NCBI RefSeq assembly: GCF_964242715.1
Contig: NZ_CAXTAZ010000011.1
Span: 24,593 to 88,592, forward strand
Direction of reading: 5' to 3'
Source: an uncultured Enterovirga sp.
Lineage (GTDB): Bacteria > Pseudomonadota > Alphaproteobacteria > Rhizobiales > Beijerinckiaceae
DNA: 64,000 nucleotides
Part shown: piece by piece, positions 21,489 through 41,169 of the stretch
How positions within the stretch are numbered: position 1 is the first letter of the stretch
Layout of the letters: the number at the start of each line of letters is the position of its first letter
Made by a program: the position numbers and the translations under genes
The notes under the pieces: generated by a model
Seen by the model: the letters and a program-made list of their open reading frames with translations, nothing else
Told to the model about the DNA's origin: nothing
Databases searched by the model: none

Positions 21489-21714
21489 GGACGTGGCCGT
21501 CTCGCCCGGATTTCCTTCGTCCTCGTTCAGCGTCCCGTGTCCTTGCGCGTTCCGGCCGAAGGCGTGCTCCGAACGGAAGCCGATCTCGACGAAGCGCTTC
21601 CGTTCTGGCATGAAATCGGCCAACAGGCGGCACAAGCCGCGAAACGCTTCTTGACGCGTGGGCTCACCGCTTCGGTAACCCTGCGTTAACCATCGACGGG
21701 CGACGTCGCAGGCG

Positions 21715-23154: not shown

Positions 23155-23244
23155 CGACCGATCGCGTCGGGGCTCGAAAGCCGTCGTGGGCATGTTATGC
23201 GTGGGACGTAGCAGCGCCCGACACGCGGCCGACCGGGGTTCACG

Positions 23245-26200
23245 ATGGATGGTGATGCGACGAGCCTGGCCGAGCCGGGATCTATCGAAACCGCGCCCGA
23301 GCGCCCGGCCGGCGACCTTCGCAGCTTCCTCTTCGCCCGGGTCCCGGCCGAGGATCTGAAGCCCTACCCGGACGAGGTCCTCGACGCCGTCGCCGGGACC
23401 GCCGGAGAGCTCTTGGCGCGGCCGCGCCAGGACGGCGCGCCCGCGATGGCGCTCGCCGACGTCGCCGTCGAGCAGGCCGGCCGCTCCCGCGAGCTCACGC
23501 TCCTCGACGTCGTCAACGACGACATGCCCTTCCTGCTCGATTCGACCCTGGCCGAACTGGACTCACGCGGCCTCGAACCGGTTCTCGTCGCCCACCCGAT
23601 CCTGGCGGTCGAGCGCGGCGAGGATGGCGGGCTCCTGCGTCTCCACGGCGAGGCGACGACGGGCGCTCCCTCGGGCGGCCGGCGCGAAAGCCTGATCCAC
23701 ATCCATCTCGACCGGATCGACGACCCGGAGGCCCGGGCCGGCCTCGTCGAGGCGCTCGGCCGGACCTATGCCGATGTCGCGGCGGTCGCCCGCGACGCGG
23801 AGGCGATGCGGGTTCAACTCGCGGGTCTCGCCGAGGATTACCGCAACAATCCGCCGCCGCTCCCGGAAGACGAGCGCGAGGAGACCTGCGCCTTCCTGGA
23901 CTGGCTGAACGAGCGCCACTTCACCCTGGTCGGCATGCGGGCCTCCCGCATCCCGGAGGGCGTGGGCACGCCGGAACCGTTGGATGGATCCGGCCTCGGG
24001 CTCCTCGCCGATCCCGAGATCCAGGTCCTGCGGCGCGGCGGGCAGTCTGTCTCGATCACGCCCGAGATCCGGGCCTTCATGGAGCGTCCGGAGGCGCTCA
24101 TCATCACCAAGGCCAGCGTGCGGTCGCGGGTGCTGAAACGAGCCTATCTCGACTATGTCGGCGCGAAGCTGTTCTCGCCCTCCGGCCGGCTCTGGGGAGA
24201 ACTCGCCATCGTCGGGCTGTTCACCGGCTCGGCCTATGCGAGCCCGGCACCCGAGACGCCCTATCTGCGCCGCAAGGTCGCCCGGGTCCTCGCCCGCGCC
24301 GGGTTCGATCCGGCGAGCTTCGCCGGCCGCATGCTGGTCGAGACGCTGGAGGATATTCCGCGCGACGAGCTGTTCCAGATCGACGAGGACACGCTCTACG
24401 GCTTCGCCCTCGAGCTTCTCCGACTGCGCGAGCATCCCCGGGTCCGCGCGCTGGCCCGGGTCGACCGTCACGACCGCTACGTCTCCGTGATCGTCTATCT
24501 TCGCAAGGACCGCGACGACAGCGCGACCCGCGACCGGATCGGCAAGTATCTGGCGGAGGCCTACCAGGGCCGCGTCTCGGCGGTGTATCCGGCCTATCCG
24601 GAGGGCGTGCTCGCCCGCACCCATTTCATCATCGGACGCGACGGCGGCGCGACGCCCGAGGTCAGCCGCGAGACGCTGGAGGCCGAGATCGCGGCGATCG
24701 CCCGGACCTGGGCCGACCGGCTCGGCGATGCCCTCGCCGGGACCGTCGGCGGCCCCCGGGCCCGCGCGCTGGCGACCCGCTATGCCGGCGCCTTCGGGGC
24801 CGCCTATCGCGAGGCCTTCGACACTCCGGTCGCCCTCGCCGATATCGAGCGGCTCGAGCATCTGAGCGAGGCGCGGCCGCGCGCGGTTGATATCTACCGC
24901 CGCGAGGGCGAGCCCGCGAGCCGGGTCGACCTGAAGCTGTTTTCGCGGGGCGCGCCGTTGCCGCTCTCCGAACGCGTGCCGCTGCTCGAGCGGCTCGGCT
25001 TCCGGGTCGTGAACGAGCGGACCTACCGGATCGCCGGCGAGGGCGAGAACCGAGCCTGGCTGCACGACATGGCGCTCCAACGCGCGACCGGCCAGGATCT
25101 CGACATCGCCGCAGTCGAAGGTCGTCTCGAAGCGGCGCTCCTGGCTGTGTTCCGCGGCATCGCCGAATCGGACCGTTTCAACCAGCTCGTCGTCGAGGCC
25201 GGGCTCGGTTGGCGCGAGGCGGCCCTGTTCCGCGCCTACGGCCGCTACCTCCGGCAGATCGTGATCCCCTACAGCCAGGATTACCTCGCCGATGTCCTCG
25301 CCCGGCACGGCGAGATCGTGGCCGCGATCGTGGCCCTCTTCACGGCCCGGTTCGACCCGAAGGAGGCCGATGAGGCCCGGGCCGGCCGCGAAAGCGAGGC
25401 ACGGGAGCGGATCGCCGCCCTGCTCGCGGCCGTGACGAGCCTCGACGACGATCGCATCCTGCGCCGCTTCCTGAATCTCGTCGATGCGACGCTCCGGACG
25501 AACTTCTTCCAGCTCGGCCCGGACGGGCTGCCGCCGACCATCATCGCCTTCAAGTTCGAGGCCTCGGCCGTCGACGCGATGCCGCGGCCAAAGCCGCTTT
25601 ATGAGATCTTCATGAACTCGCCGCGGGTCGAGGCCTTGCATCTCCGCTTCGGCAAGGTCGCGCGCGGGGGCCTGCGCTGGACCGACCGGCCGGAGGACTT
25701 CCGCACCGAGGTGCTGGGCCTCGTGAAGGCGCAGCAGGTCAAGAACGCCGTGATCGTGCCGGTCGGCGCCAAGGGCGGGTTCTTCCCGAAGCTCCTGCCG
25801 CCGGCCTCGGACCGGGCCGCCTGGCTCGCCGAGGGGACGGAGGCCTACCGGCTCTTCGTCCGCACCCTCCTCGACCTCACCGACAATCTCGACGGCGCAA
25901 CCGTGGTCCACCCCGCCGATACGGTGCGGCGCGACGGCGACGACCCCTATCTCGTGGTCGCCGCCGACAAGGGTACGGCCACCTTCTCCGACATCGCGAA
26001 CGCGATCTCGCTCGAGCGCGGCCACTGGCTCGGCGACGCCTTCGCGTCCGGGGGCTCGAACGGCTACGACCACAAGCAGATGGCGATCACGGCCCGGGGC
26101 GCCTGGGAGGCCGTGAAGCGGCACTTCCGCGAGATCGACGTCGACATCCAGAAGGAGCCGGTCACGGTCGTGGGCGTGGGCGACATGTCGGGCGACGTGT

Positions 26201-28050
26201 TCGGCAACGGCATGCTGCTCTCGCAGAGCGTGAAGCTCGTGGCCGCCTTCGACCACCGCGACATCTTCATCGACCCGGACCCGGACGCGGATCTCGCCTT
26301 CCTGGAACGCGAGCGTCTCTTCGCCCTCCCGCGCTCGAGCTGGCAGGATTACGACAAGGGCCTGATCTCGGCCGGCGGCGGCGTGTTTCCGCGCTCCGCG
26401 AAGTCGATCCCGCTCTCGCCCGAGGCCCAGAAGGCCCTGGGCCTCGGGCAGAGCGAGATCGCTCCGTCCGAGCTGATGAGCGCGATCCTGCGCGCACCGG
26501 TCGGCCTCCTCTTCTTCGGCGGCATCGGCACCTATGTGCGGGCCTCAGACGAGACCGATGCGGCCGCCGGCGACCGCGCCAACGACCCGATCCGGATCGC
26601 CGGCCGCGAGATCCGGGCCCAGGTCGTGGGTGAGGGCGCCAATCTCGGCATGACCCAGCGCGGCCGCGTCGAGGCGGCCCGGGCGGGGATCCGGCTGAAC
26701 ACCGACGCGATCGACAATTCGGCCGGGGTGAACACCTCGGACATCGAGGTGAATATCAAGATCGCGCTCTCCGTCCCGGAGCGCGACGGCCGTCTCGCTC
26801 CGGACGACCGGAACGCGCTCTTGCGGGAGATGACGGACGAGGTCGCGAGCCTCGTCTTGCGCAACAACTATCTGCAGACGCTGGCGCTTTCCCTGTCGCA
26901 GCGGCGCGGGACGGCTGATCTCGGCTTCATGTCCCGCCTGATGCAGGTGCTGGAAGGGGAGGGCCGGCTCGACCGCCCGATCGAATTCCTGCCGGACGAG
27001 GCCGCGCTCGCGGCCCGGCGCCAGGCCGGCGAGGGACTGACAAGGCCGGAGCTCTCGGTGCTCCTCGCCTATGCCAAGCTCGCCTTGCACGACGAACTTC
27101 TCGCCTCATCCGTGCCGGATGACCCGTATCTGTCGCGCGAGCTCGACCGCTACTTTCCGGCCGCGCTTCGGGACCGCTTCCCGGATTCGGTTTCGGATCA
27201 TCGGCTGCGCCGGGAGATCATCTCCACGCAACTCGCGAACGCCATCGTGAACCGGGGCGGCCCCGCGATCGTCACCCGCCTCGTCGACGACACGGGCGCC
27301 GACGCCACCACCATCGCGGCCGCCTATGCGGCGACGCGCGATTCTTTCGGCCTCACCGACCTCTATTGGGGAATCGACGCGCTCGACGGCAAGGTCCCGG
27401 GCGAGCAGCAGCTCGCGCTCTATGCCGCGGTCCAGGAGCTGATGCTGTCCCGCATCGTCTGGTTCATCCGCAACGTCGATTTCAAGACGCGCTCGCTCGA
27501 CGACGTCGTCGGGCAATATGGGGCCGGCATCGCCGAGGTCTCGGCGGCGCTGGACTCCGCCCTTTCAGCGGCACGACGCGAGGCCTGGACGGCCCGGTCC
27601 GAATCCGTCGCCAGCGGCGGCGTGCCGGCCGGCCTTGCCCGCCGCCTCGCCGCACTCCCGGACCTCGCGGCCGCGCCGGACATCGTGCTGGTCGCTCGTC
27701 GTACCGGCCGAGCGATCACCGACGTCGCCGCGACGCATTTCGCGGTCGGCGCCCTGTTCCGACTGGGCGAGCTCGCCGAGGCTGCCTCCACGATCCCGGT
27801 CCTCGACCATTACGACCGCCTCGCCCGCGACCGCGCCATCGATTCCGTGGCCGAAGCTCACCGCCGCCTGACCTCGGAGGTGGTGACGGGTGATGCGACC
27901 GGCCCCGACGCCCTTTCGGCCTGGCAAGCTATCCGCGGCGGCGAAGCCGACCGTATCCGGGGCGCCGTGGAAGCCATCGCGGCCTCCGGGCTTACCGTAT
28001 CGAAGATGACGGTCGCGGCGAGCCTCGTGGGGGATCTGGCCAAGGCTTGA
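23245..28050 (+). CDS. gdhB: NAD-specific glutamate dehydrogenase, large (about 180 kDa) class
   Basis: 1601 aa. The central catalytic region reads [42 protein letters not shown]. Confidence 0.95.
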   Translation: [1601 protein letters not shown]

Positions 28051-29846: not shown

Positions 29847-32800
29847 ATGTCGCGTCTCTTCATCAGCCATTCCAGCCAGAACAACGCCGAAGCGGCGGCT
29901 TTGCTCAAATGGCTGAGGGAGCAGGGCTGGGACGACGTCTTCCTCGACATCACGCCCGATCGGGGCATCGCGGCCGGCGAGAAATGGGAACGGTCGCTGA
30001 ACGAGGCGGCCTCGCGCTGCGAAGCGGTGCTGTTCCTCGTCTCGCGACCCTGGATCGCCTCGCGCTGGTGCCGCAAGGAATATGATCTTGCCCGCCGGCT
30101 GAACAAGCGGCTCTTCGGCGCTCTGGTCGAGGTCATCCCGGTCGCGGAGCTGCCCTCCGAGGTGACCGAGACCTTCCAGATGGTCGACCTCGCCTCCGGC
30201 CAGGATCACCGCATGATCCGGACGGAGCTCCCTCGGACGCATGAGGAGATCCATGTCACCTTCTCGAACGAGGGCCTGGCCCGCCTGAAAGACGGCCTTG
30301 CCCGGGCCGGGCTCGATCCGCGCTTCTTCGCCTGGCCGCCGGACGCCGATCCGGGCCGGTCGCCCTATCGCGGTCTGAAGGCGCTGGAAGCCGAGGATGC
30401 CGGCATCTTCTTCGGCCGCGATGCGCCGATCGTCGAGGGCCTCGACATGCTGCGGGGCCTTGCGGAGGCCGCCGCGCCGCGCCTCTTCGTGATCATCGGG
30501 GCGTCTGGGGCCGGGAAGTCGTCCTTCCTCCGGGCGGGCCTCCTGCCGCGGCTCGCGCGCGACGACCGCACCTTCCTGGCCCTGCCGGTGATCCGGCCCG
30601 AGGGCGGGGCCGTGACCGGCGAGAGCGGCCTCCTGCCGGCGCTCGAAGCGGCGCTCGCGGCCCGCGGCATCCCGCAATCCCGCGCCGCGATCCGGACCGC
30701 CCTCGCCGGCGGGGCCGCGACGCTGAAGCCTTTGCTCGCCCGGCTCGCGGGCCGGGCCCAAACCGTGATGCCCGATGCCGAGGGCGCGGCGAAGCCGCCG
30801 ATGGTCACGATCTCGATCGACCAGGCCGAGGAGCTGTTCCGGCAGGATTGCGAGGGCGAGGAGTTGCTGGCGTTCGTGCGCGACCTCGTCACCGCCGACG
30901 ACCCGGCCGTGATCGTGCTGTTCACGATCCGGTCGGATTCCTACGACCATCTCGAGACCGCGAAGCCGCTGGAAGGCCTGCGCCAGCGTACCCTACCGCT
31001 CCTGCCGATGCCGCGCGGCGCCTACCAGACCGTGATCGAGGGCCCGGCGGCCCGCCTCGCGGGGACCAACCGGCCGCTCGCGATCGAGGCGCGGCTGACC
31101 CAGCGGCTGCTCGAGGATATCGAGCGGGGGGGCGGCTCGGACGCGCTGCCGCTCCTCGCCTTCACGCTCGGCCAGCTCTATCTCGATTTCGGCGGCGGCG
31201 GCGCGCTCCGGCTAGAGGATTACGAGGAATTCGGCGGCATCCGGGGCGCGATCGAGGCCGCGGTCCGGCGAGCCATGGTGGCAGCCGACCACGATGCCCG
31301 CCTGCCGCGCGATCCCGCCTCCCGCCTCCTCCTGCTCCGGCGCGGGCTGATTCCGTGGCTCGCCAATGTCGACCCGGAGACCGCGAGCCCGCGACGGCGA
31401 CGGGTGCCGCTCTCTGACATCCCGAGGGAGGCCGAACCGCTCATCCGTCTCCTGGTCGAGCAGCGGCTCCTCTCGATCGACCGGTCGGTCCTGCGGGACA
31501 CCGCGGGGGAGCGGGTCGAGACCACGATCGAGCCGGCGCACGAAGCGCTGCTGCGGCAATGGGGCTTGCTGCGGGGCTGGCTCGAGGAGGATTTCTCCGC
31601 CCTCACCATCCTGGAGGCCGTGAAGCGCGCCGCCCGTGACTGGGTTGCGAATGCGCGAGGCCAGGACTGGCTGAACCATACCGGCACCCGCCTTGCCGAG
31701 GCCGAGACGATCGCGGCCCGCCAGGACCTCGCCGGCGACCTCGGCGAGACGGCGCGAGACTACCTCGCGGGCTGCCGCACGCGCGACGACGCTGAGGAAG
31801 AGGCCCGCCTGCAGCGGATCGAGAACGAGCGCCGGCTGGCCGAAAGCCAGCTTCGGCTCGCCGAGGCTGACCGGCTGGCCGCGGAGGAAAAGGCTGCGGC
31901 AGCGCAGGCCCGGGCCGCGGCCTCGCGCCGTTTTGCCCGGCTCACGATCGCGGCCACGGTCGCGGTCGCGATCGGCCTCGCCGCCGCCGGCGGTTTCGCG
32001 GCGCTGAACCAGATGCAGAAGCAGCGCACCGCCGACGCGCTCGCCTCGGCCGAGGCTGGGCGCTGGGTGGCGAAATCCCAGGCCGAGCTCCGCGACGACG
32101 ATCCGGTCGAGGCGATGCGCAGCGCGCTCCGGGCCTACCGGCAGCTGCCGCGGGAGGATACGCGCTCGGCGCTCCTCGCCGCCCTCCTGGATATCCCGAA
32201 CCTCGCCGGCACGGTGAAGCTCCCCGATGGTCCCGCCCAGGCCCTCGCCTGGCTCGACGGCGGCACGCTCGGCTTCGCCTCGCAGGGCGGGGTCCTGCGC
32301 CGGATCCCGGTGCCGGGCCAGCCTGGCGACCGCACATTCGACGCGGCCGCCTGGCCCTCGCCGCCGGTCGAAGACCTGAAGGCGGGCCATGCCTTCGTGC
32401 GAGCCATCCGGCGGGTCGCGCCGGACAGGGTCGTGGCCGCGCTCTCGGACGGCTCGGTCCTGGCCATCGGGCGGTCGGACCCGAAGGCGGTCGAGCTCGT
32501 CCGCCCGGGCCCGAACACGGTTGTCGACGCGGCTGCGATCGGCCGGACCGGCGCCCTCGTCGCATCCGCCGCCAACGGCGAGGGCCTGAGCCTCGCGACC
32601 TGCGACGGGCAAAGCTGCACGACACGCCGCCTGAGCGAAGGTCCAGCCCTGTCGGTCGCCATCGACGAGAGCGAGACCAAGGTCGCGATGGGCGACGAGG
32701 GCGGCAACGTCTTCGTCTTCGAGCCGTCGGGTGCGCCGCATGGCCGGACGGTCGCGCTCGGCTCGCCCGTGACCTCGATCGGCTTCGGCGAGGGCGGCGC

Positions 32801-34124
32801 CTGGCTTGCCGCCGGCACGGCGTCGGGCGAGGCCGTGATCGTCGACCCGGTTCAGGGGAGCGTGGTCTTGCGGGCGGGCATGTCGACGCGACCGGTCGGC
32901 AGCGTGGCCGCTTCGCCGGTCGGGACGAAGGCGGCGTTCAGCTGCGGCGAGACGACGGCCTGCCTCTGGTGGCTGCGCCGGTCCGAGGCGTCGGGCGTCG
33001 CGTCGGCGGGATCGACGCGCCTGCCGGGCCAGCGCGGCGTCGTGGTCGCGACGGCCTGGTCGCCCGCGGGCGACCGGCTCGCGACGGCCTTCTCCGACGG
33101 CATCGTGCGGGTCTGGCGATCCGACGCGACGGGACAGGTCGGCGCGGCTTTCCGTCCCGAGCGGATGGTGAACCTGCTTCGCGTCCAGGCGAGCCCGGAC
33201 GGCAGCCTGGTCGCGGCCGGCGGCGGCGACGGCGCCGTCAGGATCTGGGACCGGCGCACCCATGCCCTGCGACGGGTGCTGCACAGGCCGGGCGGCGAGT
33301 TCGAGACGCGCTCGGTCGCCTGGGCGCCCGACGGCCGCATCGCGGCGGTCCATGACGACGGGGCCGTCGCGATCTGGCCGGCAAGCGGCGGCGACGGCGA
33401 GCCTGTCGTGAAACGCTGGGACGCGAATGCCAACCCGGGCCTGGCCTGGACCGGTGGCGGGCGCATGCTCGCCGTCGCGCTGGGAGATGGCCGCATCGCG
33501 CTGCACGACCCCGCGACCGGACAGGACGCGTTCCTGCCGGCGATCGGTCCCGGCACGGATCCCTGGGGCCTCCTCGCGAGCCCCGACGGCGCCTCGCTCG
33601 TCGCGACCTACGTCCGGGGCGAGATCCGCCGCTGGCAGCCCGCCGCGAAAACCCACACCGTTCTACGCTCCGCGGCCGACAGGCCGGCTGGCGAGCGCGG
33701 CGGTCCCGAAAGCCTGTCGGAGAGCCCGGACGGCCGCCGGCTCGCGGTCACGGCGGACGACGAGGACGTCCGGGTGCTCGACCGCAGCGCCGGCACTTGG
33801 ACGACGCTCCGGACGGAATCGCCGCAGACGAAGGCGGTCGCCTTCAGTCCCGACGGCGCTCGGCTCGCGGCGCTCGGCGTCGATGGGCGGCTCTATCTCT
33901 GGACGGTCGCGGCGACCGGGTTCGAGCGACACCTGTCGTTGCAGCCCTCCGCCGGTCCGACGCAGCTCGGTTCGCGGCGGCCGGCGAACGGGCTCAGCTG
34001 GGCCGGTCCGGACACGCTGGTCGTCGCGACATCGGGCGGGACGCTGCAGGCGATCGGGTTTGACGAGGCGGCCTGGGTGCGGCGGGCGGAGACGCTCGAT
34101 CTCGCCGTCGCGCCGGGTCCGTGA
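29847..34124 (+). CDS. TIR domain - STAND-type P-loop NTPase - coiled coil - hydrophobic helix - WD40-like beta-propeller protein (1425 aa)
   Basis: TIR: MSRLFISHSSQNN...VLFLVSRPWIASRWCRKEY (Glu78 at 30078-30080). NTPase: SPYRGLKALEAEDAGIFFGRD, Walker A GASGAGKSS (30498-30521), Walker B ISIDQAEELF (30810-), LPLLAFTLGQLY. Coiled coil at about aa 645-695. Hydrophobic helix LTIAATVAVAIGLAAAGGFAAL (31938-32006). C-terminal repeats have the form SPDG..LA....DG.VR.W. Confidence 0.9.
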   Translation: MSRLFISHSSQNNAEAAALLKWLREQGWDDVFLDITPDRGIAAGEKWERSLNEAASRCEAVLFLVSRPWIASRWCRKEYDLARRLNKRLFGALVEVIPVAELPSEVTETFQMVDLASGQDHRMIRTELPRTHEEIHVTFSNEGLARLKDGLARAGLDPRFFAWPPDADPGRSPYRGLKALEAEDAGIFFGRDAPIVEGLDMLRGLAEAAAPRLFVIIGASGAGKSSFLRAGLLPRLARDDRTFLALPVIRPEGGAVTGESGLLPALEAALAARGIPQSRAAIRTALAGGAATLKPLLARLAGRAQTVMPDAEGAAKPPMVTISIDQAEELFRQDCEGEELLAFVRDLVTADDPAVIVLFTIRSDSYDHLETAKPLEGLRQRTLPLLPMPRGAYQTVIEGPAARLAGTNRPLAIEARLTQRLLEDIERGGGSDALPLLAFTLGQLYLDFGGGGALRLEDYEEFGGIRGAIEAAVRRAMVAADHDARLPRDPASRLLLLRRGLIPWLANVDPETASPRRRRVPLSDIPREAEPLIRLLVEQRLLSIDRSVLRDTAGERVETTIEPAHEALLRQWGLLRGWLEEDFSALTILEAVKRAARDWVANARGQDWLNHTGTRLAEAETIAARQDLAGDLGETARDYLAGCRTRDDAEEEARLQRIENERRLAESQLRLAEADRLAAEEKAAAAQARAAASRRFARLTIAATVAVAIGLAAAGGFAALNQMQKQRTADALASAEAGRWVAKSQAELRDDDPVEAMRSALRAYRQLPREDTRSALLAALLDIPNLAGTVKLPDGPAQALAWLDGGTLGFASQGGVLRRIPVPGQPGDRTFDAAAWPSPPVEDLKAGHAFVRAIRRVAPDRVVAALSDGSVLAIGRSDPKAVELVRPGPNTVVDAAAIGRTGALVASAANGEGLSLATCDGQSCTTRRLSEGPALSVAIDESETKVAMGDEGGNVFVFEPSGAPHGRTVALGSPVTSIGFGEGGAWLAAGTASGEAVIVDPVQGSVVLRAGMSTRPVGSVAASPVGTKAAFSCGETTACLWWLRRSEASGVASAGSTRLPGQRGVVVATAWSPAGDRLATAFSDGIVRVWRSDATGQVGAAFRPERMVNLLRVQASPDGSLVAAGGGDGAVRIWDRRTHALRRVLHRPGGEFETRSVAWAPDGRIAAVHDDGAVAIWPASGGDGEPVVKRWDANANPGLAWTGGGRMLAVALGDGRIALHDPATGQDAFLPAIGPGTDPWGLLASPDGASLVATYVRGEIRRWQPAAKTHTVLRSAADRPAGERGGPESLSESPDGRRLAVTADDEDVRVLDRSAGTWTTLRTESPQTKAVAFSPDGARLAALGVDGRLYLWTVAATGFERHLSLQPSAGPTQLGSRRPANGLSWAGPDTLVVATSGGTLQAIGFDEAAWVRRAETLDLAVAPGP

Positions 34125-34181: not shown

Positions 34182-36014
34182 ATGGCGGACCGGCATCTCG
34201 GATCAGCGGCAACCCTTCTGGCCGGCGTCTTCTTCGCCCTAGCGCTGTGCGGCTCGGCCGGGGCGGAGGAGGACGACGCCTCCCCGACGGCCCGCGTAGT
34301 CGTCGCCCTTCCGGCCGAAGCGGGAGCGTGGCGCAGCCGCAGCCAGCCGGTCTACGATCCGAAGGCCCAGGCGCTCGTCCGCAAGCTCTACACGGTTTGG
34401 GACCCCACGCCGTCGCGGGGGCTCGACTTCACCTGGCTGCCGGATCGTCCGGCGGATGGCGAGGCGGAACGCATCACCGGCCAGGGGCGGCTCGTCTGGC
34501 GGGCCGCCGGGAAGCCCTCCTACGATCCGGCCTCCTTCGTGGCCGAGTATCGCGGCCGCATGCAGGCCGGTCGTCCGGACGGCGTCGGGAGCTATCGCGA
34601 TCGGCAGGGCCTGTCCTACGAGGGTGGCTGGGTCGGCGGGCGCCCGGCCGGCACCGGCGCGATGAAGCTCGGCAACGGCGCCGAATATGCCGGTCGGTTC
34701 GAGCATGGTGGCGCGGAAGGCCTGGGCCGGTTCTACGACGTCGACGGCGAGATCTTCGAGGGCCTGTTCCGGCGCGGGCTGCGGGAGGGACGGGGCCGCA
34801 CGATCCTGCCGGGCGGCGGCGCCTACCAGTCGCGATGGGTGGCCGGCGAGGAGGTCGCGAATTCCCGCAAGCTCCGGGTCGCGCAGCTCGGCCCCGGAGT
34901 CGCTGCGAATGACGACATCCGGCTCGGCATCACGGTCGATCGCGTCGATGATCCCGACCTCCTGCAATACACGACCAGCAATGCCGAGAGCGGACTCCTG
35001 ATCCGGCCGAGCAAGGGGCGGCTGATGGATGCCTGGAAGGGCAATGGCGAGATCCAGTTGACCGAGCGCGAGGAGGGGATCACCGGGCGCGGCAGCTACG
35101 GCATCTTCGCCTTCGCGGCCGGCGACATGCCGCCTCTGTCGCTCGTCTTCGAGGTGCAGAACCGGGCGGCTGCCCCGGTCCGGGTGCGCGGGGCCTATCT
35201 CGACGTGGATGCGAGCAATACCGATCTTCAGCCCGCGATCCAGATGAGCGGCGGCTCCTCGGGCGAATGCAGCGCGCGGGCCCGTTCCGATTTCTCCCCG
35301 CGCTACGAACTCGAGAATTTCGGCTGGGGTGCGGCGGAAGGCGCCAAGCTCCGCTTCAACTTCGTGGCGCCACGCTCGAACGCCGCCTCGCCGTCTGCGA
35401 TCACGAAAGAGGTCGGCAATGTCACGACCGTCAGCAAGGTCGATTTTGAGGCCGAGCTCCGGGCCGCCGGGGTCAAGACCGATATCCTGAAGCAGCGGGC
35501 CCAGAGCGGCGGCATCGCCTGCAAGTCCAAGGGCAATCCCGGCGCCTGCCTCGCCGAGATCGTGGCGACCGGCTATTTCGGCACCCTCGGGCGTCTCGTT
35601 CGGCTCGATGAGCGGGACATCGTCCTCCACGCGGGCGGCACGCTCGATTACGGGTGGCGGACGCAAGGTGGCGAGCAGAAGACCCGGTCATCTCCCTTCA
35701 ACGCGCGGCTCCTGCTGGCCCGCACCCCGGTCGAGGCGGAATGCGGCGAGGGGGCCGAGAAGGAGGCCGTCGGCAAGAAGCCGCTCGAGTTCCGGCTCGA
35801 CCAGACGCGCTACCGGCTGCCGGTCGCCTTCGAGCGCACCGTCCGGGCAGGCGGCAGCGCGCGCTACACCGTCACCTTGCAGGCCCCGAAATCCTCCGAA
35901 CACAAATTCAAGGTCGTGCTGCAGACGGCCGATGGCCGGCAGATCGCCTCGCGGCCGATCGCGCTCACCTATTTCCGGCCGAACCGCCTGACGGACCAGT
36001 ATCTGAACCAGTGA
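34182..36014 (+). CDS. Secreted MORN-repeat protein with a large uncharacterised C-terminal domain (610 aa)
   Basis: GGAGGGAG RBS. Signal peptide MADRHLGSAATLLAGVFFALALCGSAGA. MORN-like units: YRGRMQAGRPDGVGSY, YEGGWVGGRPAGTGAM, YAGRFEHGGAEGLGRF, FEGLFRRGLREGRGRT. About 370 aa at the C-terminus carry no motif I recognise and include four Cys. Confidence 0.85.
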   Translation: MADRHLGSAATLLAGVFFALALCGSAGAEEDDASPTARVVVALPAEAGAWRSRSQPVYDPKAQALVRKLYTVWDPTPSRGLDFTWLPDRPADGEAERITGQGRLVWRAAGKPSYDPASFVAEYRGRMQAGRPDGVGSYRDRQGLSYEGGWVGGRPAGTGAMKLGNGAEYAGRFEHGGAEGLGRFYDVDGEIFEGLFRRGLREGRGRTILPGGGAYQSRWVAGEEVANSRKLRVAQLGPGVAANDDIRLGITVDRVDDPDLLQYTTSNAESGLLIRPSKGRLMDAWKGNGEIQLTEREEGITGRGSYGIFAFAAGDMPPLSLVFEVQNRAAAPVRVRGAYLDVDASNTDLQPAIQMSGGSSGECSARARSDFSPRYELENFGWGAAEGAKLRFNFVAPRSNAASPSAITKEVGNVTTVSKVDFEAELRAAGVKTDILKQRAQSGGIACKSKGNPGACLAEIVATGYFGTLGRLVRLDERDIVLHAGGTLDYGWRTQGGEQKTRSSPFNARLLLARTPVEAECGEGAEKEAVGKKPLEFRLDQTRYRLPVAFERTVRAGGSARYTVTLQAPKSSEHKFKVVLQTADGRQIASRPIALTYFRPNRLTDQYLNQ

Positions 36015-37776
36015 CGTCACCCGCCTCGCGCCCACGCAGCAGCGCGTTGCCGAGCTCGAACAGGTTCGGCAGCGGGATCAGCCGCACCGCGAAGGTGCCC
36101 TGGCGGAAGCGGCGCAGCTCGAGAAGGGCGCCTGTGCCCCGGGGCGAGGTCTGGTCGAAGAGGAAGTTTCCGAGGGACGGAAGCAGCGCGTATTCGCCGC
36201 CCTGCGGCGCCTCGATCCGGGCGGCGGCACGGTGGCTATGCGCGCCGATGATCGCGCCGACCCCGCAGCGATGCAGATTGCGGGCGGCCTCGTATTCGGC
36301 CGGGCCGATATCGGTCGCGTATTCGACGCCCCAATGCACGAAGGCGACGAGGGGCGGGCGCGCGGCCGCTCGGCAGAGCGTGTCGAGATCGCCCTCCCGC
36401 ACCACCGGGAAGCCGGAGCGGTCGTTCCGGCCGACGAAGTTGAGCGGGATGATCCGGACAGGCCCGAGATCGGCGACCCGTCCGTGCGGCATCGGCATGA
36501 TCCCGGTTCGCTCCAAATGGGCGATCGTCTCGCGGTAGCCGTCACGACCGAGATCGAAGCTGTGATTGTTGGCGAGGCCGGCGGCCTTGACGTTCATGGC
36601 CTTCAGGATGGGCAAAGCGAGCCCGGCATGGATCGCGTGGAGATGGTCGCCGATGCCTTCCGGCGGTTCGGTCAGCAGCACGCCTTCGAGGTTGAGGACG
36701 AGCGGCGCCCCGCCGGTCAGGGTCCTGACCCGCGCCGCGATCGCGTCGGCGATGGCGGGCGTGGCGAGCGCCTTGGTTAGCCAGCGCCCCGGAAAGGCGT
36801 CGCCACCGAAGACGAGGACCTCCTGGTCCGGATAGGCGTAAGGGAAGGCCTCGGTCTCGGTCGCATAGACCGAGACGAGGTAGCTCGTCGTGCGCGAGGC
36901 ATGCGGCACGTATTCGACCGAGTTCCGGCTCGCGATCACGGTCCCTCGGGACCCGCGCGACGCCTGTAAGCTCATCTGGACATACTGCGCGCCCCGCGAA
37001 TCCATGTGGTCCGACGAGACGAGTCGCTCGATCGCGGCCGGATCCTCGGCCGCGATCACGTTCAAGGTCTCCTGGTCGCGGGCGAGGCTCGCGACCACCG
37101 GGAGGTAGTGGGAATAGTCGGTCGATTGCACGACGAGCGTGCCCGGTCCGGCAAGCTTCTCCAGGAGCGCCGTCGCCCGGTCCCACTCGGCCCGGCCCGC
37201 CCGGAGCGAGATCGCGATCGGGACGATCTTCGCGTCGGGAAAGAAGTGCTTCGCGAAGGGCAGCAGGGCCGCGATGCCGTGCTCGCGGTCGAAGAGATCC
37301 GAAACCTCGAACAGCTCGCTATCCGCGACGAGCGTTCCAACCGCATCGCGATCGGTCGCGAGCCTCCCGAACACGGTGTCGAAGTCGTGCGCGCTCGTCG
37401 CAAGGGGCTTGCGGCTTCGGTTGAAATGGTCTGGCGACAGGATGACGATCCGGTCGTAGCGGTTGCCCTGGGCGGCCCAGAAGCCCCGCGCGATCAGGTC
37501 CGCCGCAAGCAGGTGGTGCGGGACGGTGATGCCGGTGACGGTCGGCGGCCGCGCCGGCGCAGGTTGCCGCTCCGCCGCGATCGCGGCCAGGAAGGGCTGC
37601 GGGTCGGTGTACAGGGAGGGGAAGGAGGCGGTTTCGGCCGGCTGGGCCTGTCTGTCAGCCGAGTCGTGTCCGGGAGCTCCTTCTCCCGCGAGAGGAGAAG
37701 GAGCCGCGCAGAGGCCGAAGCTGGTCGTCGTGAGGGCGAGGACCAGCCCGAACCGGAGCGCCGCCCAGCGCCTCAA
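35965..37776 (-). CDS. Exported fusion protein: Memo/AmmeMemoRadiSam-B-like domain plus CapA (PGA_cap) metallophosphatase-like domain
   Basis: TTG 37776 overlaps the livF stop (TTGA). Signal-like MRRWAALRFGLVLALTTTSFGLCAAP. Memo-like: ITVPHHLLAADLI...IVILSPDHF...STDYSHY. CapA-like: VLNLEGVL, LANNHSFDLGRDGYRETIAHL, VHWGVEY, IIGAHSHR, LPSLGNFLFDQ. Confidence 0.8.
   Translation of the reverse strand: MRRWAALRFGLVLALTTTSFGLCAAPSPLAGEGAPGHDSADRQAQPAETASFPSLYTDPQPFLAAIAAERQPAPARPPTVTGITVPHHLLAADLIARGFWAAQGNRYDRIVILSPDHFNRSRKPLATSAHDFDTVFGRLATDRDAVGTLVADSELFEVSDLFDREHGIAALLPFAKHFFPDAKIVPIAISLRAGRAEWDRATALLEKLAGPGTLVVQSTDYSHYLPVVASLARDQETLNVIAAEDPAAIERLVSSDHMDSRGAQYVQMSLQASRGSRGTVIASRNSVEYVPHASRTTSYLVSVYATETEAFPYAYPDQEVLVFGGDAFPGRWLTKALATPAIADAIAARVRTLTGGAPLVLNLEGVLLTEPPEGIGDHLHAIHAGLALPILKAMNVKAAGLANNHSFDLGRDGYRETIAHLERTGIMPMPHGRVADLGPVRIIPLNFVGRNDRSGFPVVREGDLDTLCRAAARPPLVAFVHWGVEYATDIGPAEYEAARNLHRCGVGAIIGAHSHRAAARIEAPQGGEYALLPSLGNFLFDQTSPRGTGALLELRRFRQGTFAVRLIPLPNLFELGNALLRGREAGDVTGSDTGPSGGSAGNR
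37676..37704. repeat. REP-like 11-bp perfect inverted repeat embedded in coding sequence
   Basis: GCTCCTTCTCC-CGCGAGA-GGAGAAGGAGC. On the minus strand it encodes APSPLAGEGAPG, just after the signal segment of the Memo/CapA protein. Confidence 0.5.
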
Positions 37777-38492
37777 TGAAAGGCCCCGACGCCGAGATGG
37801 CGCTCGATCGAGGCCTGGTCGCTCCGGAGTAACGGACTCGGGCCGGACCAGACGATGCGGCCCCGGTCCATGACCACCGTGTCCTGGGCGAAGTCGAGGG
37901 CGCGCTCGATCTGCTGCTCGACGAGGACGATCGTCATGTCGCCGCTCTCGGTCAGCCGGTGAAGCGCCGCCATGAGTTCGTCGCAGATGACCGGCGCCAG
38001 GCCCTCGAGCGGTTCGTCGAGGAGGAGGACGCGCGGCCGGCCGAGCACGGTCCGGGCGGTCGACAGCATCTGCTGCTCGCCGCCGGAGAGGAGCGAGGCG
38101 GTCTGCCGGCGCCGTTCTCCTAGCCGCGGGAACATCGCATAGGCCTCGACCAGCGCCGAGCGGGGCCGTTCCTTCAGGCCGGCGACGAGGTTTTCCTCCA
38201 CGGTGAGCGAGCGGAAGACGTCGCGGGTCTGCGGCACGTAGCCGAGACCCCGCCGGGCGCGCTCGGGCGTGGACAGCGCCGCGACATCCTGCCCGTCGAG
38301 GAGGATTTGACCCTCATGCCGGCGGGCGAGGCCCATCAGGGCGGCGAGCAGCGTCGTCTTGCCGACACCGTTCCGGCCCAGCACGGCGAGGCGCCCGCCC
38401 GCCGCCACGGCGAAGCTCGCCTCCTCGACAATCTGCGTCGCGCCGTAGCCGGCGGTGAGCCCTGTCACCTCGAGCGAGGCGGCGCCGCTCAT
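37773..38492 (-). CDS. livF: Branched-chain amino acid type ABC transporter ATP-binding protein (LivF-like)
   Basis: GRNGVGKTTLL, LSGGEQQML, LLLDEP. Confidence 0.9.
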   Translation of the reverse strand: MSGAASLEVTGLTAGYGATQIVEEASFAVAAGGRLAVLGRNGVGKTTLLAALMGLARRHEGQILLDGQDVAALSTPERARRGLGYVPQTRDVFRSLTVEENLVAGLKERPRSALVEAYAMFPRLGERRRQTASLLSGGEQQMLSTARTVLGRPRVLLLDEPLEGLAPVICDELMAALHRLTESGDMTIVLVEQQIERALDFAQDTVVMDRGRIVWSGPSPLLRSDQASIERHLGVGAFH

Positions 38493-39250
38493 GCGTGAGC
38501 CGTTCCGGCGTAATTGCCGAGATAGGCTTCGCGCACCCGGGGATCGGCGACGACCGCGGCAGGGGAGCCGTCGAAGATCGCCGCCCCGGAGGCCAGGACC
38601 ACGACCCGTCGGGCGAAGCGGAGCACCAGGTCCATGTCGTGCTCGATCATCAGGACGGCGATGTCGGAGGGCAGGCGGTCGATCGCCTCGACGATGCGGG
38701 GCGCTTCCGCGCGCGACACCCCGGCGGCCGGCTCGTCGAGGAGCAGCACCTTCGGCCGCAGCGCGACTGCGATCGCGATCTCGACCAGCCGCTGCTGCCC
38801 GTAGGCGATTTCCCGGACGAGCGCTTCGGCGACAAAGCCGAGGCCGAGTTGACCCAGGATCGCGTGGGCTTCGTCCTCCAGCACCGGATCGGCATGGGCG
38901 TTCCGCAGGAGTCGACCGGTTCGGCCATGGCGCTGCAGCAGAGCCAGAAGCACGTTCTCGACGACGCTCATGTCCTGGAACAGGCGGCTGATCTGGAAGG
39001 TGCGGACGAGCCCCCGCCGGACCCGGGCCTCGACGCCCTGGTCGGTCACATCCTCGTCGCCGAGCCGGATGCGGCCGCCATCGGGGCGGAGCTGGCCGCT
39101 GACGAGGTTCACGAAGGTGGTCTTGCCGGCCCCGTTCGGGCCGATCAGCGCGACGCGGTCGCCGGGCGACAGGGTGAGCGAGATATCCTGGCTGACCCGC
39201 AATCCGCCGAAGGATTTCCGCAGGGCTTCCACGGTGAGGAGCGCGCTCAC
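38489..39250 (-). CDS. livG: Branched-chain amino acid type ABC transporter ATP-binding protein (LivG-like)
   Basis: GTG 39250 overlaps the livM stop (GTGA). GPNGAGKTTF, YGQQRLVEIA, LLLDEPAAG. Confidence 0.9.
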   Translation of the reverse strand: MSALLTVEALRKSFGGLRVSQDISLTLSPGDRVALIGPNGAGKTTFVNLVSGQLRPDGGRIRLGDEDVTDQGVEARVRRGLVRTFQISRLFQDMSVVENVLLALLQRHGRTGRLLRNAHADPVLEDEAHAILGQLGLGFVAEALVREIAYGQQRLVEIAIAVALRPKVLLLDEPAAGVSRAEAPRIVEAIDRLPSDIAVLMIEHDMDLVLRFARRVVVLASGAAIFDGSPAAVVADPRVREAYLGNYAGTAHA

Positions 39251-40263
39251 CGCCGCCTCCACAGGCCCGGGACGGAGGCCACGATCTTCTGCAATCCGCC
39301 TGGCAGGAACAGCATCACGGCGATGAGGAGAAGGCCCATGATGGTGAGCCAGTGGAAGGGGTTCGCGGCCGAGACGATATGTTCGAAGACCTGGAAGACG
39401 ACGGTGCCGATGATGGCGCCCGACAGCGACCCCGACCCGCCGAAGACGAGCATCACGAGCGCCGTCGCGGACCGCTCGAAACTGACGCTGTCGAGCCCGA
39501 CGACGCCCGTCGTGATCGCGGACAGCGCGCCGCCCAAGCCGGCGACGAGCCCCGAGATGCCGTACATGGTGACGAGCGCCGGCTTGATGCGGGCTCCGAG
39601 CGCCCGGACGCGGATCTCGTCCTCGCGGATGCCGCGGCAGAGGAGCCCGAAGGGCGAGCGCACGAGAAGCCGCAGGAGCCCGAAGACGACGATCAGGAGC
39701 GCGATGCCGAGAACGTATCCGGTCTGGCCGTAGAGATCGAACTCGAAGGTTCCGAACAAGGGTTTCGGCGTGATTCCGGACAGCCCGTCGCTGCCGCCCG
39801 TGACGGTCGATGCCTTGTTCGCGAGCGCGCCCGCGAGCTGGACCACCGCGATCGACAGGACGAGTTGCGGCAGGCCGGAGGCCCGCAGGATGACGAGGCC
39901 GGACACGAGGCCCGAGACGCCGCCGGCCGCCATCCCGATCAGGAGCAGCGTCAACGGCTCCGTAATCCCAGCATGCACGGCCACGACCCCGGCCCCGTAG
40001 GCACCCGCCCCGAACAGCGCGGCGTGGCCGAGCGTCGCCACCCCGCAATAGCCGACGACGAGGTCGAGGGAGAGGACGAGAAGCGCCATCGCGCAGATCC
40101 GGCTCAGCAGGCCGAGATCGTAGGGGAAGAGAAAGAAGCCGACCGCCCCGGCGGCCGCGATCGCGGCCATGCCGAGGAGCGTGACCAGGCGGTCCCGACG
40201 GACGATGCGACCGTGCGACCGCGACCGGGCAGGAGCGGACACCGAAGCCGTGGGCGCGCTCAA
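39247..40263 (-). CDS. livM: Branched-chain amino acid type ABC permease (LivM-like)
   Basis: 338 aa, polytopic. GYCGVATLGHAALFGAGAY. Confidence 0.9.
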   Translation of the reverse strand: MSAPTASVSAPARSRSHGRIVRRDRLVTLLGMAAIAAAGAVGFFLFPYDLGLLSRICAMALLVLSLDLVVGYCGVATLGHAALFGAGAYGAGVVAVHAGITEPLTLLLIGMAAGGVSGLVSGLVILRASGLPQLVLSIAVVQLAGALANKASTVTGGSDGLSGITPKPLFGTFEFDLYGQTGYVLGIALLIVVFGLLRLLVRSPFGLLCRGIREDEIRVRALGARIKPALVTMYGISGLVAGLGGALSAITTGVVGLDSVSFERSATALVMLVFGGSGSLSGAIIGTVVFQVFEHIVSAANPFHWLTIMGLLLIAVMLFLPGGLQKIVASVPGLWRRR

Positions 40264-41126: not shown

Positions 41127-41169
41127 GAGGGGCCGTGTGATCCGAACCGCGGGCCCCGAAGGCCGGGCC

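Follow-up and report, generated by a model that had tools for sequence, protein, structure and literature searches.

Does the 1425-residue NLR-like protein encoded in this stretch of Enterovirga DNA (64,000 nucleotides, hereafter the window) work as a lone cytoplasmic phage sensor, or as one component of a larger system? Our analysis points toward the second answer. With a probability of roughly 0.55, we propose that this gene (gene 1) and its neighbours, genes 2 and 3, form a three-gene, envelope-spanning NLR-like module in which a periplasmic cue would trigger a TIR NADase and thereby a growth stop (Table 1).

Table 1. Positions of the three genes and of their features in the window.
Feature	Position	Strand	Basis
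Gene 1, TIR-nSTAND1-TM-double WD40 protein, 1425 aa	29847..34124	+	ORF, GC3, Pfam, identical NCBI protein
TIR domain, aa 1-~140, predicted cytoplasmic	29847..30266	+	TIR_2 6.9e-16; family profile; AF2 fold
GAA codon of E78, putative catalytic Glu in W74-x-x-x-E78	30078..30080	+	Alignment to RPP1, TLRs
nSTAND1 NTPase module, aa 173-605: P-loop NTPase + helical + winged-helix domains	30363..31661	+	PF20703 9.3e-67
Walker A GASGAGKSS (K224)	30498..30524	+	Invariant in A5
Walker B region TISIDQAEE (D325, E328, E329)	30807..30833	+	
Continuous 116-residue stalk helix, aa 634-749, containing TM segment	31746..32093	+	AF2 models + DSSP
Predicted TM helix LTIAATVAVAIGLAAAGGFAAL, aa ~699-720, RRFAR just before	31941..32006	+	KD 2.02; homologue conservation
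Tandem WD40 beta-propellers, aa ~786-1404, predicted periplasmic sensor	32202..34058	+	AF2, Foldseek, Pfam WD40
Gene 2, MORN-repeat partner protein	34182..36014	+	Pfam MORN; orthologues adjoin STAND genes
Gene 2 signal peptide	34182-34265	+	
Gene 2 MORN repeats	34515-34859	+	Pfam
Gene 2 uncharacterised C-terminal domain, ~375 aa	34884-36011	+	
Gene 3, exported Memo + PGA_cap/CapA-like fusion, 603 aa	35965..37776	-	Pfam, NCBIfam, conserved neighbour
Gene 3 Memo domain	36880-37536	-	Pfam 1.8e-21
Gene 3 PGA_cap/CapA-like domain	36037-36816	-	Pfam 2.3e-24

Identity and domains of gene 1

The single open reading frame claimed for gene 1 was confirmed: it runs from an ATG start to a terminal stop codon, and its codon-position GC (0.75/0.56/0.89) identifies it as a genuine high-GC gene. 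A 100%-identical protein is held by NCBI as 'TIR domain-containing protein [uncultured Enterovirga sp.]' and named 'nSTAND1 domain-containing NTPase' in UniRef. In agreement with the host-like GC described earlier, the gene (0.735) lies slightly above the window (0.697), and its composition is not foreign in look. All motifs and coordinates quoted in the sequence-only reading were exact when re-checked against the sequence, among them the strings SPYRGLKALEAEDAGIFFGRD, GASGAGKSS, ISIDQAEELF and LPLLAFTLGQLY, and the quoted motif residues are invariant in an alignment of 41 homologues (A5). Pfam matched TIR_2, nSTAND1 and WD40, as had been expected, bearing out the effector-STAND-repeat (NLR-like) layout.

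The N-terminal domain had been rightly called a TIR domain. TIR_2 matches aa 5-118 with 59.3 bits (cutoff 28), the family profile finds SpbK (6e-6), TLR1/2/6, Cat1 and RPP1, and the AF2 model adopts a flavodoxin-like beta-alpha fold. E78 does occupy the canonical catalytic-Glu position of TIR NADases: in alignments its counterparts are the Glu of the RPP1 motif SSWCLDE and that of SEWCxYE in TLRs, it is invariant in A3 and A5, and 117 of 120 homologues have W-x-x-x-E. By motif, the domain may well be NADase-competent. Having the motif is required but not enough, however, because that Glu is also found in the TIR domains of TLRs, which are not NADases. NAD+ depletion and an anti-phage role are putative for gene 1.

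The P-loop STAND NTPase call was equally sound. PF20703 scores 226.7 bits, and the AF2 model of the module has Foldseek matches to Orc1/Cdc6, PAB2304, SSO1545 and RPP1. K224 is encoded by AAG at 30516-30518, and D325, Q326, E328 and E329 of the Walker B region are invariant in A5. The ~650 aa of C-terminal blades were also correctly recognised, since AlphaFold2 builds a tandem propeller over ~aa 786-1404 (model of aa 600-1425: pLDDT 87, pTM 0.80; propeller region mostly >90). Pfam places WD40 and many beta-propeller models at aa ~940-1360, and Foldseek matches the propellers to 2ymu, Aip1 (1nr0), Gemin5 and the Apaf-1 WD region.

Gene 1 is a genuine TIR-nSTAND1-WD40 "NLR-like" protein from an already catalogued family. 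The suggestion that it may match no catalogued system holds for defence-system HMM sets only: PADLOC is without a model for gene 1, 2 or 3, and none of its system models fires on gene 1, which shows weak ThsB-like TIR matches (best 3e-5) and no Avs HMM match. The suggestion fails for the NTPase family, which is Pfam PF20703, and for the architecture, which Kaur, Burroughs, Iyer & Aravind (eLife 2021) list in their source data as 'TIR+nSTAND1+TM+BetaPropeller', with HAA13664.1 (1414 aa) as an example.

A predicted membrane helix and two exported partners

Neither the hydrophobic helix at aa ~699-720 nor the two downstream partner genes had figured in the sequence-only reading. In the AF2 models the helix is part of a stalk that sits between the NTPase and the propellers (DSSP: H35-150 in the C-terminal model, H634-699 in the N-terminal one). 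A comparable helix (Kyte-Doolittle at least 1.6, located at aa 600-800) is found in 114 of 120 homologues, with hydrophobicity up to 2.9, regardless of the C-terminal domain (WD40, TPR, FGE-sulfatase, CHAT), and also in distant DUF4062- and TIR-nSTAND1-WD40 proteins (loci L011, L012, L028, L029, L030). The combination 'nSTAND1+TM' likewise has an entry in the Kaur et al. source data. Across the 120 homologues examined, mean K+R is 4.7 before the helix versus 2.4 after it. This positive charge on the N-terminal side argues that, going solely by hydropathy and the positive-inside rule, TIR and NTPase should lie in the cytoplasm and the propellers in the periplasm. As the conserved helix separates the TIR and NTPase from the WD40 sensor, the ligand would be expected in the periplasm.

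Gene 1 is not a stand-alone gene: two exported proteins are its conserved neighbours. The gene 2 profile matches MORN1 in the PDB (1e-35), a match confined to aa 112-226, and the C-terminal domain contains three invariant Cys. Gene 2 homologues carry Sec-type signal peptides in the window and in L003, L004, L009, L010, L011, L012, L028 and L030, and a twin-arginine motif in L029; those of L005 and L006 have no signal peptide. Gene 3 matches NCBIfam AmmeMemoSam_B (9e-27) and is predicted to encode a metallophosphoesterase-like exported enzyme; its homologues bear Tat-like, Sec or lipobox signals, with Tat-like TRRAxLQ N-termini in alignment A2. In the window, gene 3 lies immediately next to an operon for an amino-acid ABC transporter.

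In some 20 of the 23 informative loci, the MORN and Memo+PGA_cap partners adjoin a (TIR or DUF4062)-nSTAND1-TM-WD40 gene; gene 2 accompanies a STAND gene in the window, L003-L006, L009-L012, L016-L019, L023, L024 and L026-L030. Gene orders among linked loci are both co-directional and divergent, and percent identity drops in parallel across the three genes from locus to locus. In two Enterovirga genomes (L007, L008), genes 2 and 3 lie apart from the STAND gene.

The sensor diverges faster than the effector: identity among orthologues is 84-86% in the TIR, 68-77% in nSTAND1 and 50-51% in the WD40 region. Proteins bearing other sensors match the N-terminal module at up to 70% identity, and in the related modules L011 and L012 the TIR is swapped for DUF4062. 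This exchange preserves the chemistry, because DUF4062 is a proven TIR-like NADase, a plain NAD+ hydrolase (bioRxiv 10.64898/2026.05.01.722283).

With regard to genomic context, the housekeeping surroundings described earlier were borne out, with no defence island in the window, and the lack of mobile elements nearby was matched by the absence of mobile-element genes among ~26 window ORFs scanned with Pfam. The description of a resident locus applies here but not to homologous modules, which occur on a conjugative Rhizobium megaplasmid and between IS elements. Elsewhere, gene 1 relatives neighbour patatin (adjacent to the module in L011, L015 and L030), TPR-S, CHAT and other TIR genes, IS elements and toxin-antitoxin genes.

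Proposed mechanism and alternatives

The membrane helix and the two exported partners give the locus the look of a three-gene trans-envelope alarm and not of a lone cytoplasmic phage sensor. In our model, gene 1 would be a single-pass inner-membrane protein with TIR and nSTAND1 in the cytoplasm, a long helical stalk crossing the membrane once, and the tandem WD40 propeller in the periplasm. A periplasmic cue would bind the propellers directly or via genes 2 and 3 (as co-receptor, ligand-maker or guarded target), clustering or releasing the stalks; the nSTAND1 modules would then oligomerise with NTP, and the TIR domains assemble into an active NADase. NAD+ would be depleted, or an ADPR-type signal made, and growth would stop in an abortive or conflict response. 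The searched literature yielded no experiments on any TM-containing nSTAND1 protein.

The canonical alternative, an Avs-like anti-phage sensor whose WD40 region binds an intracellular phage protein and whose TIR depletes NAD+, the helix being a mere tether or oligomerisation element and the neighbours irrelevant, appears quite improbable. Its effector-STAND-repeat layout is that of characterised Avs, which sense phage proteins in the cytoplasm, and defence-associated STAND clades, nSTAND included, have WD40 and FGE-sulfatase sensors (PMC13581612); the gene 2 homologues without signal peptides would also fit. However, one membrane-spanning helix cannot keep both flanks cytoplasmic, and the strength, conservation and positive-inside bias of this helix, the export signals on both partners in most loci and the PADLOC result on Avs all speak against a simple cytoplasmic sensor. 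Unlikely, too, is that the TIR makes a signal, as in Thoeris or type II CBASS, or serves as a scaffold needing a separate effector, with no bulk NAD+ depletion. The TIR weakly resembles the ThsB and type III Thoeris ThcB4 models, its W-x-x-x-E is, we presume, similar to that of cyclising bacterial TIRs such as AbTir, and the patatins adjoining the module in three loci could be signal-activated effectors. Within the window, however, neither the module nor its immediate flanks contain a ThsA, SLOG, SAVED, Macro or patatin gene, the Thoeris matches fall far under curated cutoffs (28 bits vs 220), and the DUF4062 that substitutes for the TIR is a plain hydrolase.

A possible, if tentative, reading is that of a physiological envelope-signalling or regulated-cell-death module, distinct from anti-phage immunity, in which the TIR would control NAD+ or an NAD-derived messenger while propellers and partners would monitor cell-wall or capsule-polymer turnover, kin or competitor contact, or stress. 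This is consistent with the housekeeping window, with vertical inheritance of the module in Enterovirga-like genomes at 61-89% identity, with the transporter operon next to gene 3, and with partner families (Memo; CapA/PGA_cap) tied to redox or polymer metabolism and not known as defence genes; Kaur et al. tie such systems to multicellular or social bacteria. Modular sensor swaps, fast sensor divergence, TIR/DUF4062 exchange, and the patatin, CHAT, TPR-S and TIR neighbours and mobile contexts elsewhere are, in contrast, hallmarks of conflict systems.

Comparison with known systems

The closest relatives are the nSTAND1 conflict systems of Kaur et al. (2021), which have in common with gene 1 the NTPase family and the architecture class, and in which N-terminal effectors and C-terminal sensors are interchangeable, as among gene 1 relatives. 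That study focuses on FGS-containing and EAD-coupled versions, unlike gene 1, and the passages of its main text that were examined make no mention of the TM helix or of a sensor in the periplasm. Its neighbourhood tables contain neither MORN nor Memo, PGA_cap or CapA. The architecture and the exact protein are already on record; neither those data nor the literature searched showed the association with the two partners.

Avs1-21 (Gao et al. 2022; Lee et al., Nature 2026, PMC13581612) have the same effector-STAND NTPase-repeat sensor order, activation by oligomerisation, and a sensor repertoire including WD40 and FGE-sulfatase. These soluble proteins recognise their phage protein ligands inside the cytoplasm, whereas gene 1 has a TM helix between sensor and NTPase, a different NTPase clade and two exported partner genes. 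Thoeris (ThsB TIR + ThsA) is similar at the TIR, weakly and far under cutoffs; gene 1 is without a ThsA-type effector and carries its TIR and its STAND sensor in one polypeptide.

Among eukaryotic proteins, the plant TIR-NLRs RPP1 and ROQ1 have the same TIR-NTPase-repeat order, the catalytic Glu of RPP1 aligns with E78, and the RPP1 resistosome chain 7crc_B matches gene 1 over 637 columns in Foldseek; they combine NB-ARC with LRR, in place of nSTAND1 and WD40, and are cytosolic, with neither TM helix nor periplasmic partners. Apaf-1 and TEP1/NWD1 place a tandem propeller after a STAND NTPase (Foldseek 3shf; Pfam Beta-prop_TEP1_2nd), and TEP1 carries the DUF4062 TIR-like NADase that replaces the TIR in L011 and L012. 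Unlike gene 1, all of these eukaryotic proteins are soluble, belong to the NB-ARC or NACHT clade and have no membrane helix. Finally, the TIR domains of TLR1, TLR2 and TLR6 are among the best profile matches of the gene 1 TIR, to which homology with Toll-like receptors is limited. TLR TIRs are scaffolds and not NADases, and in gene 1 the TIR is N-terminal (reversed order), a STAND NTPase is interposed and WD40 stands instead of LRR. Gene 1 would, by analogy only, share with these receptors a topological logic in which one TM helix joins an external repeat ectodomain to an internal TIR domain.

Architecture and predicted topology of the TIR-nSTAND1-propeller protein

The open frame that an earlier sequence-only reading had put forward as an NLR-like anti-phage candidate (gene 1 in the table) was recovered with the same limits, length and start, and every string and coordinate quoted there proved exact, including E78 (GAA, 30078-30080) and K224 (AAG, 30516-30518). 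We count gene 1 as real, since its codon-position GC (0.75/0.56/0.89) is that of true genes. In DNA of 70% GC long ORFs are expected by chance, and an antisense ORF of 814 aa overlaps gene 1. An identical protein is present in databases as 'TIR domain-containing protein [uncultured Enterovirga sp.]' or 'nSTAND1 domain-containing NTPase'. Record look-ups for the window's own protein and for P0194 gave no entry.

Locations of the genes and neighbouring features discussed in the text
Feature	Sequence	Positions	Strand	Remarks
Gene 1	window	29847-34124	+	1425 codons, ATG start
Gene 2	window	34182-36014	+	610 aa; 58 nt downstream of gene 1
Gene 3	window	35965-37776	-	603-aa Memo+PGA_cap fusion; convergent with gene 2
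Overlap of gene 2 and gene 3 3' ends	window	35965-36014		about 50 nt
Region of gene 3 start and LivF-like ABC ATPase	window	37773-42381	-	
NAD-specific glutamate dehydrogenase	window	23212-28050	+	1613 aa; just upstream of gene 1
Opposite-strand, high-GC3 overlap region	window	20619-23154		
EamA transporter	window	20619-22049	-	
Peptidase_M15/DUF882	window	21679-23154	+	
ORF without Pfam match	window	38459-39733	+	425 codons; GC3 0.84
ABC permease/ATPase gene	window	38489-40048	-	
Upstream region in orthologous locus	L001	2888-4948		
Upstream region in orthologous locus	L003	5670-7736		
Upstream region in orthologous locus	L004	4735-6810		
Gene-2 homologue	L005	12311-14095		
Gene-2 homologue	L006	12381-14216		
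Gamma-glutamyltranspeptidase locus	L008	7802-9598		E. rhinocerotis
Extended locus	L011	4686-18253		
Extended locus	L012	6186-17950		
Extended locus	L030	1571-13513		
Conflict island	L013	949-19400		Caballeronia novacaledonica
Short form of gene 1	L015	7001-12107		

Pfam recovered the three kinds of domain foreseen from sequence alone: TIR_2 (PF13676; aa 5-118, 59.3 bits against a cutoff of 28, E 6.9e-16), nSTAND1 (PF20703) and WD40/beta-propeller models. When the PDB was searched with the single TIR sequence, weak matches to plant RPP1 TIR domains alone were returned, and the same alignment placed S-R-W-C-R-K-E78 on RPP1 SSWCLDE. A profile built from 16 family TIR domains (alignment A3) matched the abortive-infection TIR protein SpbK (6.4e-6) and a TIR-TPR protein (8.4e-5), as well as TLR1/2/6, SIGIRR, Cat1 and plant TIRs, and the Glu column was identical across all printed alignments of this profile. 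W74, C75 and E78 are invariant in the family alignments, E78 both in A3 and in A5 (an alignment of 41 diverse gene-1 homologues), and 117 of 120 homologues share the S-x-W-C-x-x-E motif. The AlphaFold2 (AF2) model of aa 1-700 (pLDDT 85) shows a flavodoxin-like TIR fold (bA 4-7, aA 10-25, bB 31-33, aB 45-57, bC 60-65, aC 73-84, bD 88-93, bE 111-114) in which the BB-loop region is disordered or flexible (low pLDDT at aa 37-43) and E78 lies on helix aC, after strand C. Alignments, invariance and model placement therefore agree in setting E78 at the catalytic position of TIR relatives, where the sequence-only reading had put it. TLR TIR domains carry the same Glu without NADase activity, so that the motif is insufficient by itself; judging from its sequence, we consider the TIR domain of gene 1 likely to be NADase-competent.

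The nSTAND1 match covers aa 173-605 and nearly the entire model (positions 1-377 of 379; 226.7 bits against 27.1, E 9.3e-67). Invariant in A5 are Walker A G218-S226 with K224, the Walker B residues D325, E328 and E329, the N-terminal prelude 'PYRGL...FFGR' and the helix 'ALPLLAFTL'. As expected for a STAND NTPase, the top structural matches of the modelled domain are Orc1/Cdc6 (AAA+ with winged helix), the archaeal ATPases PAB2304/SSO1545 and the TIR-NLR RPP1; by sequence, this region found an FtsE P-loop fragment only and no solved nSTAND1 structure in the PDB. Towards the C-terminus, Pfam propeller models span about aa 940-1360, and the AF2 model of aa 600-1425 (pLDDT 87, pTM 0.80) extends the beta-propeller to ~620 residues (aa ~786-1404), with tandem seven-bladed propellers (2ymu, Aip1, Gemin5, Apaf-1) as best matches.

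The domain layout read from sequence thus stands, but that reading had overlooked a membrane helix and two partner genes. The outstanding hydrophobic segment of gene 1, LTIAATVAVAIGLAAAGGFAAL (aa ~699-720, KD 2.02), is directly preceded by RRFAR and, in the AF2 model, lies within one 116-residue helix (aa 634-749) that joins the NTPase to the propellers. By the hydropathy heuristics on which all TM and signal-peptide calls rest, a comparable helix is present at aa 600-800 in 114 of the 120 best homologues, and in 98 of 120 a single segment reaches a KD of 1.8 or more. The helix is found whatever the C-terminus (WD40, TPR, FGE-sulfatase, CHAT+TPR or a truncated end), and also in distant DUF4062-nSTAND1-WD40 proteins and in the plasmid, Methylovirgula and Tepidamorphus versions. 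The 15 residues flanking it contain on average 4.7 K+R before and 2.4 after. From the positive-inside rule, together with the need of the TIR domain and the NTPase for NAD+ and NTP, the N-terminal half is predicted to be cytoplasmic and the propeller sensor should be periplasmic. We consider this architecture and predicted topology highly likely.

Forms of 816-837 aa (P0022 and similar) were considered as natural splits with a separate propeller, which was not borne out in L015. There, the 823-aa TIR-nSTAND1-TM form ends in a low-complexity tail beyond the TM helix, and the next, overlapping ORF carries on the WD40 repeats without start or signal. The short form in L015 is probably a frameshift or assembly artefact, and the same may apply to P0022, P0023 and P0051.

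Two putatively exported partners and their linkage to gene 1

Gene 2 encodes a protein with a Sec-type signal peptide, MORN repeats (aa ~112-226; MORN1 matched at 1e-35 in a profile search of the PDB) and a C-terminal domain of ~375 aa that contains three invariant cysteines and has no relative in Pfam, NCBIfam, PADLOC or PDB. The family is small (~100 clusters), always annotated as hypothetical, and its named matches are restricted to Alphaproteobacteria. Signal peptides are found on the homologues in at least ten loci other than the IS-flanked L005 and L006, where the homologues have none and no upstream room for one.

The homologues of gene 3 begin with a Tat-like TRRAxLQ motif, a Sec signal or a lipobox, and metal-site motifs are invariant in both the Memo and the PGA_cap halves. 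The 3' ends of genes 2 and 3 overlap. Gene 3 starts with a TTG (37776) that shares bases with the stop codon of a LivF-like ABC ATPase gene, and further upstream on the same strand are a fused permease/ATPase, a permease and a periplasmic binding protein; given this overlap and gene order, gene 3 may be co-transcribed here with the amino-acid ABC transporter operon. In L003 and L004 a TctC gene sits between genes 2 and 3. In L008, a gamma-glutamyltranspeptidase (GGT) gene adjoins an isolated MORN/Memo+PGA_cap pair. Proteins of the GGT and CapA families both act on poly-gamma-glutamate in Bacillus and, by analogy, this neighbour is a possible hint at the substrate of the partners.

A gene-2 homologue is paired with a (TIR or DUF4062)-nSTAND1/WD40 gene in about 20 of 23 informative loci, across Enterovirga, Rhizobium (chromosome and plasmid), Bauldia, Methylovirgula, Tepidamorphus, Paracoccaceae and metagenomes. 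A first genome scan with narrow peptide patterns yielded 6 loci, and an enlarged alignment (A6) was used for the metagenome scan. The trio occurs with gene-1 orthologues of 61-64% identity and differing flanking contexts in L003 and L004; with homologues of 41-43%, flanked by transposases, integrase and toxin-antitoxin genes, in L005 (Rhizobium johnstonii) and L006; on the R. leguminosarum conjugative megaplasmid pRL31b3 in L028; and in L009, L010, L016-L020, L029 (Methylovirgula) and L030 (Tepidamorphus). Its orientation is divergent in L023, L024, L026 and L027, and in L011 and L012 a DUF4062-nSTAND1-TM-WD40 gene is accompanied by duplicated MORN and Memo-PGA_cap genes, each present twice. 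Among the exceptions is E. rhinocerotis, whose STAND gene (L001) is on one contig and whose partner pair (L008) is on another; a divergent 528-aa gene beside its orthologue was considered as a relocated MORN partner and rejected, having no BLASTP similarity. From locus to locus the percent identities of the three proteins drop in step, as expected for a co-inherited unit. A functional link among the three genes is, in our judgement, quite likely.

Genomic surroundings and signatures of conflict

TIR and nSTAND1 of gene 1 are up to 70% identical to those of proteins with quite different C-termini, and among orthologues identity is 84-86% in TIR, 68-77% in nSTAND1 and about 50% in the propellers. 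In related modules TIR is replaced by DUF4062, which in Swarozyc defence and in TEP1 was recently shown to be a TIR-like NADase (bioRxiv 10.64898/2026.05.01.722283). Extended loci add a secreted WG-repeat protein, patatin, TPR-S, CHAT and further TIR proteins, and the patatin matches a CBASS-type phospholipase effector HMM at 2e-46. In L011, L012 and L030 the additions are a secreted WG_beta_rep protein, a patatin phospholipase and TPR-S. L013 holds a 1799-aa TIR-nSTAND1-WD40 paralogue within a dense conflict island (patatin, TPR-S, ThsB_TIR-WD40, CHAT, CAP12-PCTIR_TIR and another giant WD40 protein), and contains no MORN or Memo partners.

Defence-island or mobile-element context is seen at the homologues in L005, L006, L013, L028 and L030, but not in the window, whose neighbouring genes are housekeeping ones (DnaX, PtsP, aspartokinase, NAD-GDH, aldo-keto reductases, a Liv-type ABC transporter, a GS-like enzyme, catalase) with a single tRNA. 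No integrase or transposase was found among the window ORFs scanned, which agrees with the earlier remark that mobile-element genes are missing nearby. A phage collection gave two weak matches, both at the NTPase level, and we therefore regard gene 1 as not phage-borne. In a scan for promoters and terminators, 29-38 kb was no richer in sites than shuffled sequence. We consider a conflict or immunity role for the module somewhat more likely than not.

Several features of the surroundings merit a brief description. A large NAD-specific glutamate dehydrogenase gene precedes gene 1; in orthologous loci the TIR gene is closely preceded by genes for a porin and for NadE, a glutamine-dependent NAD synthase. 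A functional link through NAD was considered for NadE and NAD-GDH, but their adjacency to a putative NADase gene is probably plain synteny. The overlap of the EamA transporter and Peptidase_M15/DUF882 frames implies that the true starts are shorter than the open frames. We read the ORF with gene-like GC3, which runs antisense to the ABC permease/ATPase gene, as most likely a shadow ORF.

Proposed mechanism, alternatives and relation to known systems

Our best-supported reading, to which we assign a probability of roughly 0.55 as a whole chain, is that the propellers would sense a periplasmic cue, together with the two partners or by way of them; nSTAND1 would then oligomerise, this would activate the TIR NADase, and growth would halt. 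In a more specific and so far tentative version, the module would be a trans-envelope NLR, in which the periplasmic tandem WD40 domain, the secreted MORN protein and the secreted Memo+PGA_cap protein might detect an extracytoplasmic danger signal (phage adsorption or ejection, an envelope-attacking toxin or a modified envelope polymer) and relay it via the single helix to the nSTAND1 oligomerisation switch and the TIR NADase. If true, the module would correspond in function to an NLR with a Toll-like receptor fused to it, and would be the first of its class of innate sensors to look beyond the cytoplasm.

Less likely than the best-supported reading is a physiological envelope-signalling module. 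That the TIR domain makes a signal instead of depleting NAD seems improbable to us; this alternative overlaps the other readings, since only the output step is concerned. Least likely of all is a purely cytoplasmic, Avs-like sensor, against which the conserved TM helix between NTPase and sensor speaks.

To our knowledge, every bacterial STAND/NLR-like immune protein characterised so far (Avs, bNACHT) detects its trigger within the cell. A large, uncharacterised nSTAND1 branch appears instead to place its sensor across the inner membrane, and one sub-branch appears to recruit two exported proteins of unknown function. If confirmed, the periplasm, the compartment at which phage genomes, bacteriocins and secreted toxins first arrive, would also be surveyed by bacterial NLR-like receptors. 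The trio would further offer a tractable three-gene system for the relay from ligand to NTPase-TIR switch across a membrane, and a first function for a MORN-containing family and for periplasmic Memo-CapA fusions. Should gene 1 prove an ordinary member of a catalogued family, the gain would be a clean annotation and a warning that a reading as a stand-alone cytoplasmic sensor overlooks topology.

PADLOC and NCBIfam returned no system-level model for any of the three proteins; on gene 1, PADLOC gave weak ThsB-like TIR matches (best 3e-5) and P-loop fragments, and no Avs or bNACHT model. Open-access literature yielded nothing relevant on Memo, CapA, MORN and STAND together, and nothing specific on membrane-anchored or periplasmic NLR-like TIR proteins. 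Exposure to the periplasm is noted by Doré et al. (PNAS 2024) as possible for some DGR-diversified NACHT/CLec targets. Lee et al. (Nature 2026, PMC13581612) include nSTAND among 589 STAND clades with WD40 and FGE sensors, and frame and test sensing 'inside cells'. Kaur, Burroughs, Iyer and Aravind (eLife 2021), who defined the nSTAND1 clade, present effector/EAD-nSTAND1-FGS proteins as counter-invader systems. Their source data list 'nSTAND1+TM' 412 times, 'nSTAND1+TM+BetaPropeller' 278 times and also 'TIR+nSTAND1+TM+BetaPropeller', for example in a 1414-aa protein; MORN, Memo, PGA_cap and CapA are absent from them. The earlier suggestion that gene 1 may match no catalogued system model therefore holds for PADLOC, but its architecture is in these source data, and gene 1 is accordingly a member of a catalogued, uncharacterised family.

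Among known systems, Thoeris pairs a ThsB TIR protein with ThsA (SIR2/TM-SLOG or Macro), whereas the gene 1 neighbourhood has no ThsA-type gene, and the Thoeris model ThcB4 scores 28.3 bits on the gene 1 TIR domain against a cutoff of 220. Avs is a soluble cytoplasmic sensor for a phage protein, whereas in gene 1 a conserved TM helix separates NTPase and sensor. With respect to these systems and to the catalogued family, what our analysis would add is a family-wide, correctly oriented predicted TM segment and a conserved set of putatively exported partners.
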